Positions 29,841 to 57,002 of a DNA stretch of 64,000 nucleotides are shown here, piece after piece. The stretch is from a virus. The translations under genes and the position numbers were made by a program. The notes below the pieces were generated by a model. The model did not search any database. It was not told where the DNA came from and saw only the letters and a program-made list of their open reading frames with translations. The stretch is from positions 47,743 to 111,742 of IMG/VR virus record IMGVR_UViG_3300043772_001024; one strand, 5' to 3'. The stretch's first letter is position 1, and each line of letters starts with the position of its first letter.

Positions 29841-32591
29841 CTACTTTTTATTTTTCACTGAACCACCTTTATCATATTTGTTTTTATTCACTCTTGCTAC
29901 TTGAAGTTGTTTATCAGCTATCTCTCTTTGAACTTGTAGCTTCTCTCTTTCAATAGCATTCTTATCTCTATCTAACATAGTTCTGGTAGCTTCTTTATCT
30001 CTTTGCAATTGATTTTGCATTTGATATTGCTCACTTTGTCTTATATCTTTTAAAGCATCTTGGTAATCAGATATCTGATTCTGATTAATATCAGCCATAG
30101 ATCCATAACCAGCAGCTCTAATTTCAGCAATAAGTATTTCAGTTTGTCTATCTTTCTCTTTCTCAGCAGCAGTAGCATCAATCTTCATCTTCTCAATCTC
30201 TTGTTGTTTCTGAAGTTGTTGTTCTTGCATTTGCTGTTGTTGTTGCATTTCTTCTTGTTTTTGCTGCTGTTGTTTTTGCTCAGAAGATTTAAGAGCACTG
30301 TTAAGTTCAGCAATAGAATCAGATTGAACAATTTTACCAAGATCATAGATAGAAGCTCCTGTAGTATTATTCTGCATAGCCATTTGTTTTAACTGTTCTA
30401 AAACAGCTCTGTGGTTTGCGGTTGTACTACAGAATATATTAAGATCTCTCATCAATAAGTCAGTACCATTTATTTCAAAGTTTACTTTCTCATCTGCTGT
30501 AGTAATATAACTTAATCTGCTTGATGGTTTTGTAGAGTGATAATACTGCGCTAAGTCAGTTCTCATCTGGTGAACTCTTGGCATTAAGTAATCACAGTGC
30601 TGAACAAAGAACATTTCTGTTTGAGCATATGAAGAAGCAGCAGCTTGTTCTACTCCGGTAGCAGTCATTTGAGCTATTTGTTGTCCCATCCTTTGTGGAG
30701 TTACACCTATTACTTCATAAGCTTGTTGCTTGAAGTGATTAGCTAACTGTATCCTTGACATTAATCTCTCTGTCTGAGATAGATCTAGTTTTTGGAAATG
30801 CTGGAAGTTTAATGCATTCTCTGTATTTGTGATAGATGTATCTAGAGGTAGCATCTGGAAGTTCTTCATTGCTACATATGCTTTAGCATAATTACCTTTC
30901 CCCCAGTCTTCTCCTAATGAGTGTCTTGGTAAAGTATTCTGGTCAAGCATGATAATAGTTCCTAGTTCATCTACTAATATATCTGCAATCTGATTGTTAA
31001 CTATATTATATCCAATCTGGTATGGTTTCATTAAGTCAATAAGTGCAGTAGACTTAGTATTTCTATCTGAGAATACAGATCCTTCTACTGGAAGTTTACA
31101 TCCATACAAGCTATTATCACCTTTAAACTGAAATCTTAGTGGTCCTATCTTAGGTTTATCAACTCCAATATACATAGGAGTAAATCCTCCCGGATTATTC
31201 ATACCCCAGAAAGAAGGTATGTTTGGCCCTATCTTTATACCACCCCATACTTCATTGATCCATATCCAGTCAATATGTTCACCGTAAACTAAGTTATCTT
31301 TAGTTTTGTTTTTCATCAATCTGGTATCATAAATTGGTTTAGTAGATATTGTGTAATCTTCATCTACTATATCCATCTCTACTTTACCATTATCATCTAT
31401 ACTTATTAGATGCCCTATTTTTCTCTGAGACTTCCAATATATAGTTGATACCCTTAATAAGTATGCTGTACCTTGATCATAGTAATCCTCACCTTCAGAT
31501 AGTATTTGAGTAATGATATCCCCGCCTTCTAATACAGTACCACCCATTGCAGTTGTATACTGTCTATATGCTAATGAGGGCATATTAGTATTCCAATCAT
31601 GTGATTTGGTACCGTCATAAAAACTACCATCATTTTGAAGACCACCAATTGTGTATCCGGCAGATCTGATTGGGTATACTGCTTCTAAAGCTCTTAATTG
31701 TTCTTCATCCATCAGATATCCATATCTATCAATAACATCAGCAGGAGTCATCATATCTGTCTTACCGGCCCAGTTAGCTTGAGATATATATCTAGCATCT
31801 GGAGATTTATGATAAAATGAAATAGCTGGATTCCATAACTCTACTTCATAATCATCTTCCATCATGCGGAAATGCCAGAACTCTCTATCTGTAATTAACA
31901 TGTCACGGAAGCCTCTTTCTTCAAGTTCATCCATTCTGAATCTTTCTACATCCACTTTATGTTGATGTGTAGCCCACTCTTCTACCATTGACCTGTAATC
32001 TTTTCTAAAGTACATTTCAATTTCAGGAAGGGATTTTAATTTCTCTGGTGATGTCTCTTGTTGGAATTCTTCTGAATCAGGCTGAAGTCCTTTATCCATA
32101 AGTGCAGAAGATACTTTAAGTCTTGCATCTTGTAATAGAACATCTTCAACCATTTGTCTTTTCTGCTCTATCATCTCATTGTATGAATGTTCATCAACAG
32201 CTCTATAAGTCAGCTTAGTTGATCTTTTAGCAAATTCAGCCACCAGAACATTAATAACATTTGGTATAATTGGATAGAACTTTAACTCTAATGCAGAAAC
32301 ATCTTCTTTAGTTAAAAGATCCACAATGTCTCTGTAATCATTATTTTCTTCTACTATGTAGTCTGACTTATCTATAATACCTTTTGCAAGTTTATAGTTC
32401 TTCATCAGTCTTCTAGCATTTCTCCGGATTTGTTTTAAGCCTTGCCACTCCAACCAGTCTAAATTCCATGCTGCCCACTTCTCATCCTTTTCTTTTTTTG
32501 TAATAAACTGTAATGGTTGGGTGATACTACCCATTCTATTATTTTCAGTTGTGGCTCCTCCTTTTGCTTGTAAAGCATTTATTATCTTCAT
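29841..32591 (-). CDS. Portal protein
   Basis: 916 aa directly after TerL; YPII...NVL..E, WINEVWGG.KIG, LIDLMKPYQ; Q-rich C-terminal barrel. Confidence 0.9.
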   Translation of the reverse strand: MKIINALQAKGGATTENNRMGSITQPLQFITKKEKDEKWAAWNLDWLEWQGLKQIRRNARRLMKNYKLAKGIIDKSDYIVEENNDYRDIVDLLTKEDVSALELKFYPIIPNVINVLVAEFAKRSTKLTYRAVDEHSYNEMIEQKRQMVEDVLLQDARLKVSSALMDKGLQPDSEEFQQETSPEKLKSLPEIEMYFRKDYRSMVEEWATHQHKVDVERFRMDELEERGFRDMLITDREFWHFRMMEDDYEVELWNPAISFYHKSPDARYISQANWAGKTDMMTPADVIDRYGYLMDEEQLRALEAVYPIRSAGYTIGGLQNDGSFYDGTKSHDWNTNMPSLAYRQYTTAMGGTVLEGGDIITQILSEGEDYYDQGTAYLLRVSTIYWKSQRKIGHLISIDDNGKVEMDIVDEDYTISTKPIYDTRLMKNKTKDNLVYGEHIDWIWINEVWGGIKIGPNIPSFWGMNNPGGFTPMYIGVDKPKIGPLRFQFKGDNSLYGCKLPVEGSVFSDRNTKSTALIDLMKPYQIGYNIVNNQIADILVDELGTIIMLDQNTLPRHSLGEDWGKGNYAKAYVAMKNFQMLPLDTSITNTENALNFQHFQKLDLSQTERLMSRIQLANHFKQQAYEVIGVTPQRMGQQIAQMTATGVEQAAASSYAQTEMFFVQHCDYLMPRVHQMRTDLAQYYHSTKPSSRLSYITTADEKVNFEINGTDLLMRDLNIFCSTTANHRAVLEQLKQMAMQNNTTGASIYDLGKIVQSDSIAELNSALKSSEQKQQQQKQEEMQQQQQMQEQQLQKQQEIEKMKIDATAAEKEKDRQTEILIAEIRAAGYGSMADINQNQISDYQDALKDIRQSEQYQMQNQLQRDKEATRTMLDRDKNAIEREKLQVQREIADKQLQVARVNKNKYDKGGSVKNKK

Positions 32592-49997: not shown

Positions 49998-50630
49998 TTA
50001 TTCTGTATCATAAAACATTCTTTCAGAATCTTCTGTATGCCACTTATCAAAACCCTCACAATTGTACCACTCTTTGTTAACCAGATAGTCAGGTTTCTCA
50101 GGGAAAGGCTTGGTTACAAAGCTTGGCTCTGACCACTTGATCCGGTTATTAGGTTGTAGAGCAATCTGTCCATTATCTAAAAGTATTATGTGATGGCTCT
50201 TATGCTCCATAGGATCTTCTGCTAGAGATAGATCTGTGTTAGGATCATTAGACCCCCAGTTAATAGTAGCATAGTAACTACCCTGGTAGAACTTATGGTC
50301 CTTCATATACACTTCTACTTTGGTATCATACAGATATGACAAATGCAGTAGAGTAAACTTGTAGGAGAAACAGTTCCAGATCTGCAGATAATGAAAAGGT
50401 AAATCTGGATCCGGTAACTTAGGTTCTGTCAATAGGGCATGGGATGGTAGTTTATCTCTGAGAACTCCATTCTCAAGGAGCACCTGGAACAATGCAGCTT
50501 GTCCCGGCATACACCTTACTGAAATAACTACCCCCGGGGTAAATTCCCCCAGACCTTTCTTACCCTGATACATATACTCATTCCTAACAAACACCTTGAG
50601 AGGAAAAAAATTGTGTTCTATATAAGCCAT
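49998..50630 (-). CDS. Conserved phage protein of unknown function (start MAYIEHNFFP)
   Basis: ATG at 50630, 4 nt after TATATTTG; the longer track ORF would cross a terminator. Confidence 0.7.
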   Translation of the reverse strand: MAYIEHNFFPLKVFVRNEYMYQGKKGLGEFTPGVVISVRCMPGQAALFQVLLENGVLRDKLPSHALLTEPKLPDPDLPFHYLQIWNCFSYKFTLLHLSYLYDTKVEVYMKDHKFYQGSYYATINWGSNDPNTDLSLAEDPMEHKSHHIILLDNGQIALQPNNRIKWSEPSFVTKPFPEKPDYLVNKEWYNCEGFDKWHTEDSERMFYDTE

Positions 50631-50641
50631 AGTACAAATAT

Positions 50642-50709
50642 AAAAAAAATCCTGGACTGTAACATCCAGGACTTTCCACCCAGTCCGTTGACCAGGAAAC
50701 ACATATCTA
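50642..50709 (-). ncRNA. Candidate sRNA B
   Basis: TATATTTG (50714-50721) upstream, TCCTGGA/TCCAGGA hairpin plus U8. Confidence 0.45.
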
Positions 50710-50722
50710 ATTACAAATATAC

Positions 50723-50794
50723 AAAAAACCCCGGTACATTATACCAGGGCTTCTTGCTCATCAATTTAGTTTTTAATTATGTCACCATAATCCT
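50723..50794 (-). ncRNA. Candidate sRNA A
   Basis: TATATTTG (50799-50806) upstream, CCCTGGTA/TACCGGGG hairpin plus U6; only a 3-codon ORF. Confidence 0.45.
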
Positions 50795-51175
50795 AGAACA
50801 AATATACCAACTTATTTTTAACTACCAAATTTTATAGCATGTGATGGCTATTGATTTTATTATAAGTAGTAGCATGTGATGGGGTATGTATGGATGAGCC
50901 CCACCCTCAGCCAGAATTGGTGGTACCCCCCATGAAATCTATACAGATTAAAACTTTTTGGGTATGAAAATAATATTTTTTGTACAGGTAAAAGTATCTG
51001 TTAACAGTCTATGATCTAGCTACAACTTAGTACTATGATTAGTATAGTATAGTATGTATATAAGACACAAGCACAGGTGGTACTGGCAACCATGTCTATA
51101 TATCTAGCTGGCAAGCAACCAACAACATTGTATATATACAGCTCTATACTATTATTAAATATAAAATTAATAGTT

Positions 51176-51340
51176 ATGGATAACACTTGCCCAACATGTA
51201 ATATGGAATATGATATAGATATCAATTTCAATGAAGAAACCAACTCATATGATGCAGTTAAAAAATGTATTTGTGATTATATGAACATGTTCTATGAACA
51301 TGATTCACAAATGGAAAAAGAATATGAGTTACCCTTTTAG
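51176..51340 (+). CDS. Small early protein (CxxC..CxC; ends ELPF)
   Basis: ATG 41 nt after the motif start; MDNTCPTCNMEY...EKEYELPF. Confidence 0.7.
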   Translation: MDNTCPTCNMEYDIDINFNEETNSYDAVKKCICDYMNMFYEHDSQMEKEYELPF

Positions 51341-51401
51341 GGTAGCTTATATTTATGTTATATACAGCTCATTACTATTATTAATTATAAAATTAAACAT
51401 T

Positions 51402-51590
51402 ATGAAAGTATTTGGATTATTTAATATGGTTGCTGCTTATATATGCACCATAATTTGTATTGTTAGTGTAACATATTATGTAGCATTTGAAGCTATGTAT
51501 GCTAATGCGTTTATCATGTCTTTAGCAGGATTTGCTATGTTTATGGTAGCAAGAACATTACACACTGAATGGAGACAAGGGAAGCTATAA
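51402..51590 (+). CDS. Small early membrane protein
   Basis: MKVFGLF..., two hydrophobic helices, ATG 41 nt after the motif start. Confidence 0.7.
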   Translation: MKVFGLFNMVAAYICTIICIVSVTYYVAFEAMYANAFIMSLAGFAMFMVARTLHTEWRQGKL

Positions 51591-51654
51591 GGCTTCTCTT
51601 TCTCTTTGTGTATTATACAGCTTTTCACTAGTATTAATCTTAAAACTAAATATC

Positions 51655-51723
51655 ATGGTATCTTATGTAATCATCAATGGAATTGTAACAGTTAAAGAAT
51701 GGGTATTAAATCCCAATGCTTAA
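51655..51723 (+). CDS. 22 aa early peptide (not in ORF track)
   Basis: MVSYVIINGIVTVKEWVLNPNA; own motif 41 nt upstream and own hairpin terminator downstream. Confidence 0.6.
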   Translation: MVSYVIINGIVTVKEWVLNPNA

Positions 51724-51798
51724 CTTGAAGTGTCACTTTAATAGTGGCACTTTAACTTTTTGATATACAGCTTATTACTAATCTTAAATTAAACAATT

Positions 51799-52017
51799 AT
51801 GATAGCACAGATTATTTTTATTTGGTATCTCATTACAGGGACTGTAGTGTACCAACATGATGTTGAAGGTAGACAAACTTATGCTCTATTCTTTCCTGAT
51901 GGGAAGGTAGTTGATTATGCTTATAAGGCAGAAATCATAGAGTATATAGAGACCGGAACATTTGAGTATGATGAAACTTTGGAAGACAAAGTTACTGATG
52001 CAGATAAGGGGGAGTAA
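51799..52017 (+). CDS. Small early protein
   Basis: 72 aa in a motif-ORF-hairpin cassette. Confidence 0.7.
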   Translation: MIAQIIFIWYLITGTVVYQHDVEGRQTYALFFPDGKVVDYAYKAEIIEYIETGTFEYDETLEDKVTDADKGE

Positions 52018-52069
52018 TCCCCTTTATACTTATACAGCTTTTAACTAGTATTAATTAAAACTATATATT

Positions 52070-52342
52070 ATGGAAACAAGAATTGACAAAAGTGAAGTTA
52101 CTCAAAGTTTATTAAACAGAATGAGTTATCTAGATAAACATACTATGGTATGTATGATACAGATACTTCAATCAAGAATAAACCTTCCTGATAGTGCTTA
52201 CACTAAATGGGGTAATGAGGCTTGGATAAGACATGTTGCAGATGCACTTAATGAGTATCTGGATATCAAAGAAAAGAATGATAAAAACATGAGAGCAGCA
52301 TTAGCTAATATGCAAGATGCCTATGAGAATCCAGAGTATTAA
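52070..52342 (+). CDS. Small early protein
   Basis: 90 aa in a cassette. Confidence 0.75.
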   Translation: METRIDKSEVTQSLLNRMSYLDKHTMVCMIQILQSRINLPDSAYTKWGNEAWIRHVADALNEYLDIKEKNDKNMRAALANMQDAYENPEY

Positions 52343-52408
52343 GGGGGAGTAATCCCCTTTTTTTTCTTTTATACAGCTTTTTACTAGTATTAATTAAAAC
52401 TATATATT

Positions 52409-52705
52409 ATGACAGATTTTATTCATACAGGTTGGTGGGCACCTACATTAACTACCACTGAAGATCCTTTGTTAAAAGTTATTGAAAGAGACAATGGTGT
52501 TTCTTGGACTATAACCTTTTATGTAGGAGAACACATCATAGATTGTATTAACATGGAATGGTGTCGTGGTACTAAATTAGACAAGGATGTCCTTAGACTT
52601 CCTGTGTATAGTGATGAAGGTATATACTTAGGTAGCCTTGCCAAAAGATTGGAAGATGCTATTAATGTGATGTATCCTGAACCTATGTTCAAGACAGGGG
52701 AGTAA
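52409..52705 (+). CDS. Small early protein
   Basis: 98 aa in a cassette. Confidence 0.75.
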   Translation: MTDFIHTGWWAPTLTTTEDPLLKVIERDNGVSWTITFYVGEHIIDCINMEWCRGTKLDKDVLRLPVYSDEGIYLGSLAKRLEDAINVMYPEPMFKTGE

Positions 52706-52790
52706 TCCCCTTTTTTTGTATAAGGTGCTTTGCACATCTTGTTTATACAGCTTTTTACTGCTTGGAGTATTAACCAATAAATTATTTATT

Positions 52791-53102
52791 ATGAAAGTTC
52801 AAGGAACATTAGTGTCAGTTAGCAACACAGTAAAAACAGCTAACAGTGAGAATGCATCTGAATACCGCACTTGTGTAGTTAAGTTAGCAGACGGTAACAA
52901 CTACTTTGCAAAGATTTGGGAAAAGAGCTTCCAAAGAGGTGTTGAGATTGGTGCTGAATATACCGTTGAGGGTCAACAAGACGGTGACAATATTTGGTTA
53001 ACCGTGTTGAATGGTGCAGATGCCCAAGTTGCTACTGTTGCCAACCTTGGTGCATTGTTTGGTGTTGCACAAAACACTCTTGCTGAAGAACCATTGTTCT
53101 AA
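52791..53102 (+). CDS. OB-fold-like early protein (possible ssDNA-binding)
   Basis: MKVQGTLVSVS...YRTCVV...AKIW...GVEIGAEYTVEG; acidic-hydrophobic tail EEPLF. Confidence 0.6.
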   Translation: MKVQGTLVSVSNTVKTANSENASEYRTCVVKLADGNNYFAKIWEKSFQRGVEIGAEYTVEGQQDGDNIWLTVLNGADAQVATVANLGALFGVAQNTLAEEPLF

Positions 53103-53185
53103 TGTGAGTAATATAGCCCGTACATAGTGCGGGTTATATTTTTTTTATAAAGGCCTTCGGCAACTTGTTTGTACAGCTTTATACT

Positions 53186-53305
53186 TTTGTGGGTTGAGTA
53201 TGGTGGAATTGCACAATAAGTGCATACTCAACCCTGTTGCACTGTTTATTAAGTGCACATAATGGAGATGAGTGTGTGTGATGATGTGATAATCTCTCCA
53301 CTATT
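53186..53305 (+). ncRNA. Candidate structured early RNA
   Basis: Eighth promoter motif followed by a perfect 12-bp stem (53191-53202/53223-53234) and further stems, with no ORF. Confidence 0.4.
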
Positions 53306-53520
53306 CTTTGGGTCATATCTAGTGTTCAGAATCTAGTAAAATCCCATATAACTATAGATATATATGGCTACACAACCATATCTATACAACACACATCTAG
53401 TCTACCTTACTATATTACTTATTACTATTATATCTATTAGTATTAGTTAGTGTTGGACAGCAATATCTTCCGGAATTAGTTTTCCGCCACTATATATGAT
53501 TATTAACCTGATTAAAATTT

Positions 53521-53892
53521 ATGATTATGAACTCAATGCACAAAGCTATTGAAGCAGCTAAAGTCTGGAACATGACTCCACAAGAAAAACAATTGTATTA
53601 TTACAAACAATCTCATAGACCAGAGAACAAAGATGTCTTTGATAAACCAAATGACAAAGGTAACTATGGTACTAGAAGAAGATCTAGACCATGGGATAAC
53701 TGTTGGTTTAGTAATAAACCACATATTATATCTCTTACTATAGAAGAAGCAATTAGTAAGCATCCGGATTATATGTTGTGGTGCTACAAAAACTTAAGTA
53801 TCAAATGGTCTGTACATACTGTAAGATTATTTGACAAACTACAACCAAAAACTAAAGTAATGACTGCTTCTACATTTATGTCATTAGTTTAA
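53521..53892 (+). CDS. Hypothetical protein
   Basis: 123 aa ORF with an A-rich leader. Confidence 0.65.
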   Translation: MIMNSMHKAIEAAKVWNMTPQEKQLYYYKQSHRPENKDVFDKPNDKGNYGTRRRSRPWDNCWFSNKPHIISLTIEEAISKHPDYMLWCYKNLSIKWSVHTVRLFDKLQPKTKVMTASTFMSLV

Positions 53893-53897
53893 ACTAA

Positions 53898-54200
53898 ACA
53901 TTGCAGTTATAAGAGGAAACCTGTTGAGGTAGTGAACGTAATCTTATAGCTGTAGTGTATTATTTAACTTATAGAAACTTAATTAATATTTTCTGTTAGG
54001 CAGGGTGATACCCATGAGTCCTGACTAAATGAGTCGGGAAACAACACCGCTAGGGTGCCCACTCCGTTGCTAATGCCAACTAGAAGGACTTAATCACTCC
54101 AGCATAAAAGCACCTCTGTCACTGTGTATACATACAGTTTATCCTTTGTTTCTCAAAGGTGCATTCACAGGCTTTATAGTAAGGTTTGCCTGTGTTTTTT
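53898..54200 (+). ncRNA. Candidate multi-domain structured RNA
   Basis: 17-bp stem with 3 GU pairs (53898-53914/53942-53958), several GC-rich hairpins, terminal terminator. Confidence 0.45.
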
Positions 54201-54226
54201 AATTAGTAATTTAAAAACAAATAAAT

Positions 54227-54460
54227 ATGAATGCAACTATGATTAACAACAGGGAGTATGTAGAAACTCAACACCACTTTAGTTCTTTAATAGATCAAGA
54301 GCTATTAGAGAAAGCTGGTAAATTCTACCGGGAACCACTATCAGACACAGACAGGAGAAGAATACTCTCTATGGATCTAACTGATAAGCTATGGTTATTG
54401 CAACAGTATAAGGATGAAGAAAAGATATTTCCTCCTGCAGATTTTGATAATATTTATTAA
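54227..54460 (+). CDS. Hypothetical protein
   Basis: 77 aa. Confidence 0.65.
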   Translation: MNATMINNREYVETQHHFSSLIDQELLEKAGKFYREPLSDTDRRRILSMDLTDKLWLLQQYKDEEKIFPPADFDNIY

Positions 54461-54476
54461 TTCATTAACTTACAGT

Positions 54477-54608
54477 ATGAAAACATCAGCAGTAATTATC
54501 CTATGGTTTGCAGCAGTTACTACAATAGCAATATTATTTGCTAGCTGTGGTACAAGTAACCATGCTTGTGATGCCTACGGTCAGGTAGACACAGAAGAAA
54601 GAATTTAG
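54477..54608 (+). CDS. Small lipoprotein
   Basis: MKTSAVIILWFAAVTTIAILFASC lipobox, then GTSNHACDAYG. Confidence 0.65.
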   Translation: MKTSAVIILWFAAVTTIAILFASCGTSNHACDAYGQVDTEERI

Positions 54609-54647
54609 TACTTAGTACTAATTAGTATTACAGGAGCCAGGAAATAC

Positions 54648-54935
54648 TTGGCTCCTTTTTTATTGTATAAACTTATGATTATGAAAAAGTTAGAAGAATT
54701 GGAATTGAAAAGAGAACATTATCAAACTCAACTAGAAGAACTTCATTTTAATGAACCTAGTGAGTCATGGTATAAAATAAGAAGATCTGAACTAGAGTTT
54801 CAGATAGCTAATATGGATGAAGCTATAGAAGATGAGAAAGAGTCATTAAGACAAGAAAGAGTAATAGGTAATGTCTTTATTATTGTCTTATATGCATTAG
54901 TAGTAACAGGATTAGGAATTTTAATATTTATGTAA
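54648..54935 (+). CDS. Coiled-coil protein with C-terminal TM helix
   Basis: True start probably MIMKKLEE; C-terminal hydrophobic helix. Confidence 0.6.
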   Translation: MAPFLLYKLMIMKKLEELELKREHYQTQLEELHFNEPSESWYKIRRSELEFQIANMDEAIEDEKESLRQERVIGNVFIIVLYALVVTGLGILIFM

Positions 54936-56718: not shown

Positions 56719-56892
56719 AGAAATGTGTTGTCCCTTGAGAAAGGAATGTTAAGTAGTCTGCCAGATACCAACACAGAGGGCTTCTCATCCTCAAGACACA
56801 TAAACTTCAGTTCCCACACAGTGGTGAGATGGGCTAAGTTATATACAATTTCTCGGAGCTGGAAGTAGAAAGCTGAAGAGTGTGTCTTTTAT

Positions 56893-57002
56893 AGTCCCAT
56901 AGCTCAGTTGGTAGAGCGGAACCTCTGAAAATGTAAAGGATAGCCTGTTAGGGCATGCAATACATCAGGTTCAGGTCACAGGTTTGAATCCTGTTGGGAT
57001 TA
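56893..57002 (+). tRNA. tRNA-like gene (Phe-GAA-like) with a ~35 nt insertion in the anticodon loop
   Basis: Acceptor AGTCCCA/TGGGATT, D-arm GCTC-AGTTGGTA-GAGC, stem GAACCT/AGGTTC, variable loop AGGTC, T-arm ACAGG-TTTGAAT-CCTGT; no encoded CCA. Confidence 0.7.

Follow-up and report, generated by a model that had tools for sequence, protein, structure and literature searches.

How the injected RNA polymerase of a crAss-like phage finds its genes has been an open question since the enzyme was characterised, and the locus described here bears on it. It lies in a 64,000-nucleotide (nt) stretch of viral DNA (the window), which comprises bases 47743-111742 of a 111,742-bp IMG/VR virus record (G000; completeness estimate 94%) and carries, between 51135 and 53185, an array of short repeats set before tiny open reading frames (ORFs). 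The source phage is present in lake-water metagenomes, and its gp66-type polymerase matches (phi14:2 g066 and crAss002, see below) mark it as a distant crAss-like phage. We read the array as a set of candidate phage-specific early promoters, probably used by the virion polymerase, in which the repeated modules drive a shuffling of small genes like that of promoter-early stem-loop (PeSL) cassettes; the probability of this reading was put at roughly 0.55.

The motif TRTACAGCT-N4-ACT was found eight times, always on the + strand (starts at 51135, 51361, 51614, 51764, 52031, 52370, 52744 and 53170), in agreement with an earlier note on this DNA; eight copies within 2 kb compare with 0.05 expected from shuffled sequence. 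A scan of the full genome and of relatives, which that note had proposed, revealed no further copy in the remainder of the 111,742-bp genome, and arrays in the relatives. With a position weight matrix (PWM) derived from 75 distinct motif copies of the window phage and its relatives, the eight copies scored 27-35 bits and the best other hit in the genome 12.7 bits. The core given in the earlier note stands, but the conserved signal is longer, about 22 nt, with T at +7 and +10, T at +16 in 73 of the 75 copies and TTAA/TTGA at +18 to +21 (consensus tA-TACAGCT-T-N3-ACT-N2-T-N-TTAA).

The first seven copies each stand before a small ORF, defined as the ORF of at least 20 amino acids (aa) opened by the first ATG behind the motif. 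The distances from motif start to ATG are 41, 41, 41, 35, 39, 39 and 47 nt, within the 35-47 nt reported before, and the ORFs, likewise small as claimed (22-103 aa), encode 54, 62, 22, 72, 90, 98 and 103 aa. Cassette 1 (51135..51354) consists of the motif (51135-51150), the 54-aa ORF with CxxC and CxC (51176-51340) and a terminator (51320-51354). In cassette 2 (51361..51600) the motif (51361-51376) is followed by the 62-aa ORF (51402-51590), whose hydrophobic product is probably a membrane protein, and a terminator (51577-51600). Cassette 3 (51614..51755) combines a motif (51614-51629), the 22-aa ORF (51655-51723) and a terminator (51725-51755), and cassette 4 (51764..52022; motif 51764-51779, 72-aa ORF 51799-52017) ends in the hairpin GGGGAGTAATCCCC (52009-52022). 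Cassettes 5 (52031..52360; motif 52031-52046, 90-aa ORF 52070-52342, terminator 52341-52360) and 6 (52370..52711; motif 52370-52385, 98-aa ORF 52409-52705, terminator 52696-52711) have the same plan. Cassette 7 (52725..53140) opens with a mini-hairpin, GTGC-TTT-GCAC (52725-52735), ahead of its motif (52744-52759), the 103-aa ORF (52791-53102) and a terminator (53110-53140). All of these lie on the + strand.

In 50500-54000 we counted 13 terminator-like sites, i.e. a hairpin with a T-run, where 1.5 were expected. Six lie on the + strand at the ends of cassette ORFs, and the seventh cassette hairpin (52009) has a shorter T-run. The three identical hairpins noted earlier were found again (GGGGAGTAATCCCC at 52009, 52344 and 52697; repeat family D5), as were the near-identical motif-to-ATG stretches at 52030 and 52369 (98% over 43 nt; D2), behind which the ORFs belong to different families. 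Between units in general, the terminator-promoter-leader modules are 77-98% alike. Since every unit is closed by a terminator, every unit needs a start signal of its own, and the motif is the sole conserved element in each inter-unit spacer.

The description of the array as eight self-contained cassettes held for seven units and failed for the eighth. Unit 8 (53153..53520, + strand) has a mini-hairpin, GCC-TTC-GGC (53153-53161), and a motif (53170-53185), followed by a 335-nt ORF-less leader into the next gene. No terminator-like site was detected on the + strand from 53140 to 54632; copy 8, with no ORF behind it, therefore probably heads a longer unit, the probable remainder of which (53521..54656, +) contains a 123-aa gene (53521-53892), small ORFs and a terminator (54632-54656). 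The leader includes a 12-bp stem (53191-53234), and its sequence is conserved in G001, G003 and G004. It was considered as a structured RNA and rejected, the fold being no better than that of shuffled sequences (z = -1.73) and the stem being broken in G002.

The last two units of the array have, in almost all lineages, a short inverted repeat whose loop is 3 nt long and whose centre lies 14-19 nt upstream of the core. Its stems covary (GTGC/GCAC, GCC/GGC, TGCC/GGCA, TGGC/GCCA, TGTCC/GGACA and TGTTGC/GCAACA); in copies 7 and 8 of the window they are 3-4 bp long, with 3-nt loops, about 16 nt before the core. As these two units are already preceded by a full terminator, the mini-hairpin is an additional element. 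A hairpin of the N4 type within 30 nt upstream of the core was absent in six of the eight copies, the hairpin of copy 2 being the preceding terminator stem.

About 90 loci of relatives were gathered from IMG/VR with the help of a pattern scan and of a conserved 234-aa gene, left of the array, that served as anchor. The 37 loci in which the sequence extended 2.5 kb or more upstream of this gene were surveyed blind, and an array of the form hexamer-N4-ACY (at least four copies per strand) was detected on the array strand in 23 and on the opposite strand in none. ACAGCT-type arrays were found in at least nine further contigs, with 5-11 copies, always clustered and on a single strand. Other relatives carry a different repeat in the same place (ACATCT, ACTGTG, ACTTCT, ACAGCTC-ATAAC, GCCGCT, CTAACC, CCCTTG or ACAACT), and at least eight hexamer types share one frame, in which the hexamer is followed by N4, ACT and, a few bases on, T and TT(A/G)A. 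Blastn of the array against 50,697 phage records gave no match.

Within each genome the motif copies are uniform, and no variant of another lineage clusters in the window genome. Orthologous mini-genes (families F1, F2, F3, F8 and F9) stand behind different hexamers depending on the lineage: the 22-aa peptide behind ACAGCT and ACTTCT, the 72-aa family behind ACAGCT and ACTGTG, and the 103-aa family behind ACAGCT, ACTGTG and GCCGCT. The agreement of copies within a genome, together with orthologous mini-genes behind different hexamers, indicates that all copies changed together. Such concerted change is the behaviour of a cis signal that tracks one trans-acting reader.

A candidate reader is encoded in the same genome. 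The array sits at a divergent junction, with genes running leftward up to 50702 and rightward beyond it, and the sign of the GC skew flips there. The rightward arm, at whose head the array stands, carries SNF2/DEAD and DnaB-type helicases, primase, exonuclease and ATPase genes; the leftward arm carries terminase, portal, major capsid and a series of giant proteins. One of the latter (3263 aa; G000:27441-37235) has GADFDVDK at residue 2377 and in tblastn matched g066 of Cellulophaga phage phi14:2, annotated 'Catalytic RNA polymerase subunit' (4e-17), and the catalytic RNA polymerase subunit of crAss002 (3e-15). By this homology and its DFDxD motif it is assigned as a crAss-type (gp66-like) two-barrel virion RNA polymerase, in keeping with the expectation of the earlier note that such an enzyme would be carried. 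An 1855-aa protein with DFDWD was also considered as the polymerase and was rejected in favour of the 3263-aa DFDVD protein, which matches g066. Phmmer searches of PDB and PHROGs returned nothing for either protein, and a search with PF00940 (T7-type polymerase) gave no match, its control also being empty.

Compared with the window phage, identity in the polymerase core falls from 87% in G001 (same hexamer) to 68% in G008 (ACTGTG), 48% in G007 (ACATCT) and 45% in G006 (ACTTCT); the corresponding values for the portal protein (window 29841-32591) are 96, 86, 79 and 79%. Across these five genomes the polymerase core has diverged about 2-3 times faster than the portal, which is in keeping with enzyme and signal having evolved together.

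A second promoter-like class, TTTTGTATATT, was found in sense orientation upstream of the leftward operons and one rightward gene, about 30-40 nt before operon starts (window 29784, 38099, 40367, 47833 and 50724 on the - strand, 55710 on the + strand). Several copies match TAnnTTTG because they read TATATTTG. The divergent class II box TTGTATAT, within TTTTGTATATTTG (50717..50724, - strand), serves the leftward genes and forms the left boundary of the array region. In 15 loci the class II box has 22 occurrences on the gene strand, as against a single one on the opposite strand. The region from the portal to the next gene, which holds one such box, is nearly invariant across lineages with different array hexamers, and the portal proteins of these lineages are just 79-96% identical. 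The genome would therewith possess one conserved, host-like promoter class and one fast-changing class confined to the array.

According to the mechanism that we propose, each repeat would be a lineage-specific promoter of about 22 nt, flanked on one side by the intrinsic terminator of the prior unit and on the other by a leader, rich in A/T, of about 20 nt. The array would give rise to seven monocistronic mini-transcripts and to an eighth, longer unit that opens with the 335-nt leader. The reader would be the crAss-type two-barrel RNA polymerase, which is encoded among giant virion cargo genes and presumably injected, and the array genes would then be immediate-early genes. Homologous recombination across the near-verbatim modules would remove, insert and replace ORF bodies, leaving a complement of mini-genes that varies about a core whose order is conserved. 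The promoter-like behaviour described in the earlier note is borne out by the single strand, the position between terminator and leader, the fixed frame and the dissimilarity to sigma-70 promoters; from these features we infer that the motif starts transcription. The virion polymerase appears the most economical reader of it, a judgement held with slightly better than even confidence. Early expression is suggested by the position of the array at the head of the replication arm, as the corresponding module of phi14:2, the sole crAss-like phage with an experimental transcription study, is early and rifampicin-resistant: its replication arm forms the early class and is transcribed by the rifampicin-resistant virion enzyme, and two non-coding regions near the start of that arm are very strongly expressed (bioRxiv 10.1101/2020.03.07.982082).

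Several points weigh against this reading. For the early transcripts of phi14:2 no common upstream motif was found (bioRxiv 10.1101/2020.03.07.982082), and no comparable motif was detected in the first 9 kb of that phage. In the window phage the motif is missing from the rest of the replication arm, so a virion polymerase that reads this signal only would transcribe just about 3.5 kb. The co-variation of motif and polymerase is not specific evidence, because motif divergence tracks the overall phylogeny. RNA data came from four candidate runs with 5-6% of sampled words, two of which are probably DNA and all of which are stored as contigs; the contigs are short, cover cassette 7 and other genes of both arms, do not allow 5' ends, strand or level to be read and may be DNA carry-over. 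In two metatranscriptomes, contigs of about 200 nt lie inside the 103-aa gene (52831-53033 and 52822-53018, with 0 and 1 mismatch), which is weak evidence that this gene is expressed.

A more far-reaching proposal, to be taken as a whole and held as tentative (slightly short of even odds), is that ACNNYT-N4-ACT-N2-T-N-TT(A/G)A represents the first sequence-defined promoter class of the crAss-type two-barrel virion polymerase; the literature search revealed no promoter defined for this polymerase family since the phi14:2 study. The signal would have two parts, a lineage-specific hexamer and a common TTAA/TTGA box. Lineage specificity would be determined by the middle bases of the upstream hexamer, which would evolve in concert with the enzyme in a manner resembling the T7/T3/SP6 group. 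The proposal also includes a hairpin-assisted subclass, which would head the two most conserved units, and the OB-fold protein of cassette 7 (see below) could serve the polymerase on single-stranded DNA.

The motif could instead be a promoter for the host RNA polymerase, recognised through a lineage-specific phage factor (sigma-like or an appropriator, possibly delivered with the virion) or through an alternative host sigma factor. The hairpin with T-run is the classic stop signal of the multisubunit bacterial enzyme, the T4 PeSL arrays have the same architecture and use host RNA polymerase, and for the virion polymerase of phi14:2 no promoter motif was found. However, a search of the genome for sigma-70 region 2 did not find it, and expression of the first genes would require that a phage factor had already been synthesised or injected. 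The motif is also unlike a sigma-70 promoter or TAnnTTTG, and other operons are served by the conserved TTTTGTATATT class. Sigma-70-like sites in the array region numbered 14 against 20.4 expected, i.e. without enrichment, and the invariant TACAGCT-N4-ACT has no -10 box at 16-18 nt; TATACA was tried as a -35 box and rejected for want of a -10 box at a workable spacing. Both elements of Bacteroidota sigma-A promoters (TTTG at -33 and TAnnTTTG at -7) are absent from the motif, as the earlier note had recognised for TAnnTTTG. Reading by the host enzyme is considered unlikely.

Action of the motif in RNA is still less probable. In that case the motif would serve, within the 5' untranslated region, as a site for processing by a phage endoribonuclease or for binding of a translational regulator, transcripts would start further upstream, and the hairpins would stabilise 3' ends after cleavage. 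Its fixed position 35-47 nt before start codons would suit such a role, a co-evolving RNA-binding protein could equally drive the lineage-specific change, and the early RNA of phage T7 is cut at hairpins into monocistronic pieces. Against this, the T-runs behind the hairpins are typical of terminators and not of RNase III sites, and ORF-less units are headed by the motif as well (copy 8 in the window, copy 0 in relatives). No self-complementarity was found within the motif itself, nor was there any sign of an upstream promoter from which a long precursor could start.

Promoter use by the virion polymerase being the preferred reading, the second part of the proposal concerns the exchange of cassettes. 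A comparison of cassette content and order, set in advance as a test of this claim, showed that related genomes differ in the cassettes they contain and that the breakpoints fall within the repeated modules. The five genomes of the window lineage (flanks 72-90% identical) carry 8, 10, 8, 11 and 10 motif copies. They keep a core order (62-aa membrane-like protein, 22-aa peptide, 72-aa and 103-aa proteins, unit 8), and the other units are variable. Homology with relatives is lost in the final bases of the leader and regained where the terminator begins. The 98-aa ORF of cassette 6 is replaced by other ORFs in G001 and G003 (homology lost at about 52411-52414, regained at about 52690-52697), and G004 lacks the body of the 90-aa ORF of cassette 5 (homology lost at 52072, regained at 52346). 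From motif 3 to the motif-4 leader (51611-51793) the sequence is 100% identical to that of G003, with flanks of 78-89% identity on either side. A metagenome contig from another sample joins 51169 to 51395, which are equivalent positions of copies 1 and 2, and therefore represents the array without cassette 1; this arrangement also occurs in G002 and L099.

The degree of conservation differs between cassettes. The family of cassette 1 is common to G001 only, and all five genomes of the window lineage have that of cassette 2 (F5). The 22-aa peptide of cassette 3 is identical in G001, G003, G004 and L099, and differs by conservative changes in G002 and L090; a homologue occurs in L048 (ACTTCT). 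Family F1 (cassette 4) also occurs behind ACTGTG-type motifs in L070 and L075, and family F2 (cassette 7) in three motif lineages. Breakpoints lie in 60-80 nt stretches of shared sequence, suggesting that the exchanged unit is the ORF body and that the repeated terminator-promoter-leader module provides the homology. When contigs were aligned to the window sequence no backward joint was seen, and these contig data are uninformative on mini-circles either way.

The comparison with integrons made in the earlier note was not upheld: repeats serving as recombination sites of an integron-like site-specific system would explain the variable cassette content between relatives and the boundaries near the repeats, but this is very improbable, as the genome, 94% complete by estimate, has no tyrosine recombinase (PF00589 absent, control positive in 14/14 genomes), inspection of the sequence revealed no attC-like imperfect palindromes, each cassette comes with a putative promoter and a terminator of its own, unlike promoterless attC cassettes under one common promoter, and the breakpoints are as expected of homologous recombination.

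The cassette ORFs gave no match in Pfam or PHROGs. The model of the 103-aa protein (pLDDT 71, moderate) has the topology b1-b3, helix, b4-b5, and Foldseek hits were to OB-fold nucleic-acid binders (Teb1 OB-A, the mitochondrial single-stranded DNA-binding protein Rim1 and ribosomal uS12). The nearest named protein-atlas clusters were phage single-stranded DNA-binding protein and DUF3127, with scores at the level of a lead only. An OB fold is therefore predicted for this protein, the most widely conserved of the mini-genes. For the other mini-genes an anti-defence or takeover role is a guess.

Upstream of the array two further motif-like sites were noted on the + strand. The decayed copy 0, TATACAGATTAAAACT (50940..50955), has AGAT in place of AGCT (core TACAGAT; 9.4 bits), and the next 180 nt or so contain no ORF; its ortholog is intact in L099 (TATACAGCTTAAAACT) and nearly intact, with the core TACAGCT kept, in G004 (CATACAGCTCAAAACT). 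A decayed or variant copy 0b (51019..51034; core TACAACT-N4-ACT) is, at 12.7 bits, the ninth-best hit in the genome, and its hexamer, ACAACT, is the array hexamer of lineage L039. Neither copy is significant by PWM score alone, because shuffled sequences reach 20 bits. Directly before copy 0 stands a GC-rich, GGTACC-centred element, GGTGGTACCCCCC (50919..50931, + strand), and such an element precedes copy 1 in L018, L026, L044, L048, L081, L099 and G004. GGTACC-centred elements occupy the same position in most lineages examined, within an otherwise AT-rich divergent region; they might act as an origin, in packaging or as a boundary signal. In G006, which is classed as having direct terminal repeats, locus coordinates place the array about 18 kb from an end, which has no bearing on its placement relative to the injected end.

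Further observations concern the surroundings of the array. A leader box, TTAAAACTA, occurs at 51640-51654, 52054-52069 and 52393-52408 and, in phi14:2 (L111), at 1968, 2180 and 8204, in each case 10-15 nt before start codons; it is probably a translation-start context common to Bacteroidota phages. Between the 62-aa and 22-aa cassettes, L100, L102, L103, L081, L048, L018 and L011 carry a motif-headed, ORF-less unit that is absent from the window. It recurs across lineages with different hexamers, contains AATGTTTCCAGGGG or a close variant, and looks like a conserved small RNA cassette that was lost in the window phage. On the - strand, 50640-50760 contains two sites with hairpin and T-run. 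Each overlaps a box of the TTTTATATTTG type that lies upstream of the 210/234-aa gene, forming a very short unit from promoter to terminator opposite the array strand. The only Rfam hit in 50500-54300, TD-2 on the opposite strand, scored 32.9 bits against a threshold of 48.7 and was dismissed as chance.

Downstream, the segment 55210-57074 has no counterpart in G001, G003 and G004. Part of it (56800-57000) shows very high depth from RNA-run contigs. Also within the segment, other samples have a tRNA-like anticodon arm in place of 61 nt; ARAGORN called no tRNA there.

With the array and its lineage variants, the question of how the injected polymerase selects its genes acquires a precise candidate sequence, for which the natural hexamer variants are ready specificity swaps. 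A phage group other than the T4 type would build its early region from self-contained units exchanged by recombination, and such units would explain the origin of the fast-changing small genes of these abundant phages. The analysis also flags tiny early-gene candidates, including the conserved 22-aa peptide and the OB-fold protein.

PeSL cassettes were described in the T4-type phages RB49 and phi1 (Arbiol et al. 2010, PMC2839356). Like the window array, they are short repeated modules of early promoter and terminator stem-loop placed before small ORFans in a hyperplastic region (PMC2839356), and in both systems the insertions, deletions and replacements that separate related phages are accounted for by recombination between such modules. 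The parallel drawn in the earlier note thus stands for architecture and shuffling and fails for the promoter: that of PeSL cassettes has a sigma-70 consensus and is used by host RNA polymerase, whereas the window signal is not sigma-70-like and its hexamer varies between lineages. The phages themselves belong to different groups, the T4 type and the crAss-like order.

The early promoters P1-P3 of coliphage N4 are read by an injected virion RNA polymerase (PMC4496689). Both systems have a few clustered promoters (putative ones in the window), not of host type, before the first small genes, and a giant polymerase borne in the particle; moreover, the small hairpin with 3-nt loop upstream of the core in the last two window units recalls the N4 promoter hairpin. 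The N4 enzyme, however, is a T7-like single-subunit polymerase, whereas that of the window phage is homologous to the two-barrel gp66 of phi14:2. N4 promoters contain a hairpin of 5-7 bp with a 3-nt loop, centred at -11, and conserved GC-rich bases, whereas the window signal is linear, 22 nt long and hairpin-less in six of eight copies.

With phi14:2 the window phage shares its polymerase family and genome plan (bioRxiv 10.1101/2020.03.07.982082, Drobysheva et al.). In phi14:2, genes of the middle and late classes have host-type promoters conserved among relatives (bioRxiv 10.1101/2020.03.07.982082), as does the second class in the window. The two differ in that no early motif was found in phi14:2, whereas the window has a sharp one.

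In Thermus phage P23-45, the AT-rich promoters of a virion RNA polymerase fused to the tape measure have been located, the starts being mapped by ONT-cappable-seq and ChIP-seq (PMC10770324). That phage belongs to an unrelated group, its motif is unrelated, and its starts are experimental, whereas the window motif is a candidate promoter. Both systems nevertheless combine a two-barrel virion polymerase with a short motif upstream of pre-early genes, and in both the motif is restricted to relatives that carry the polymerase (PMC10770324).

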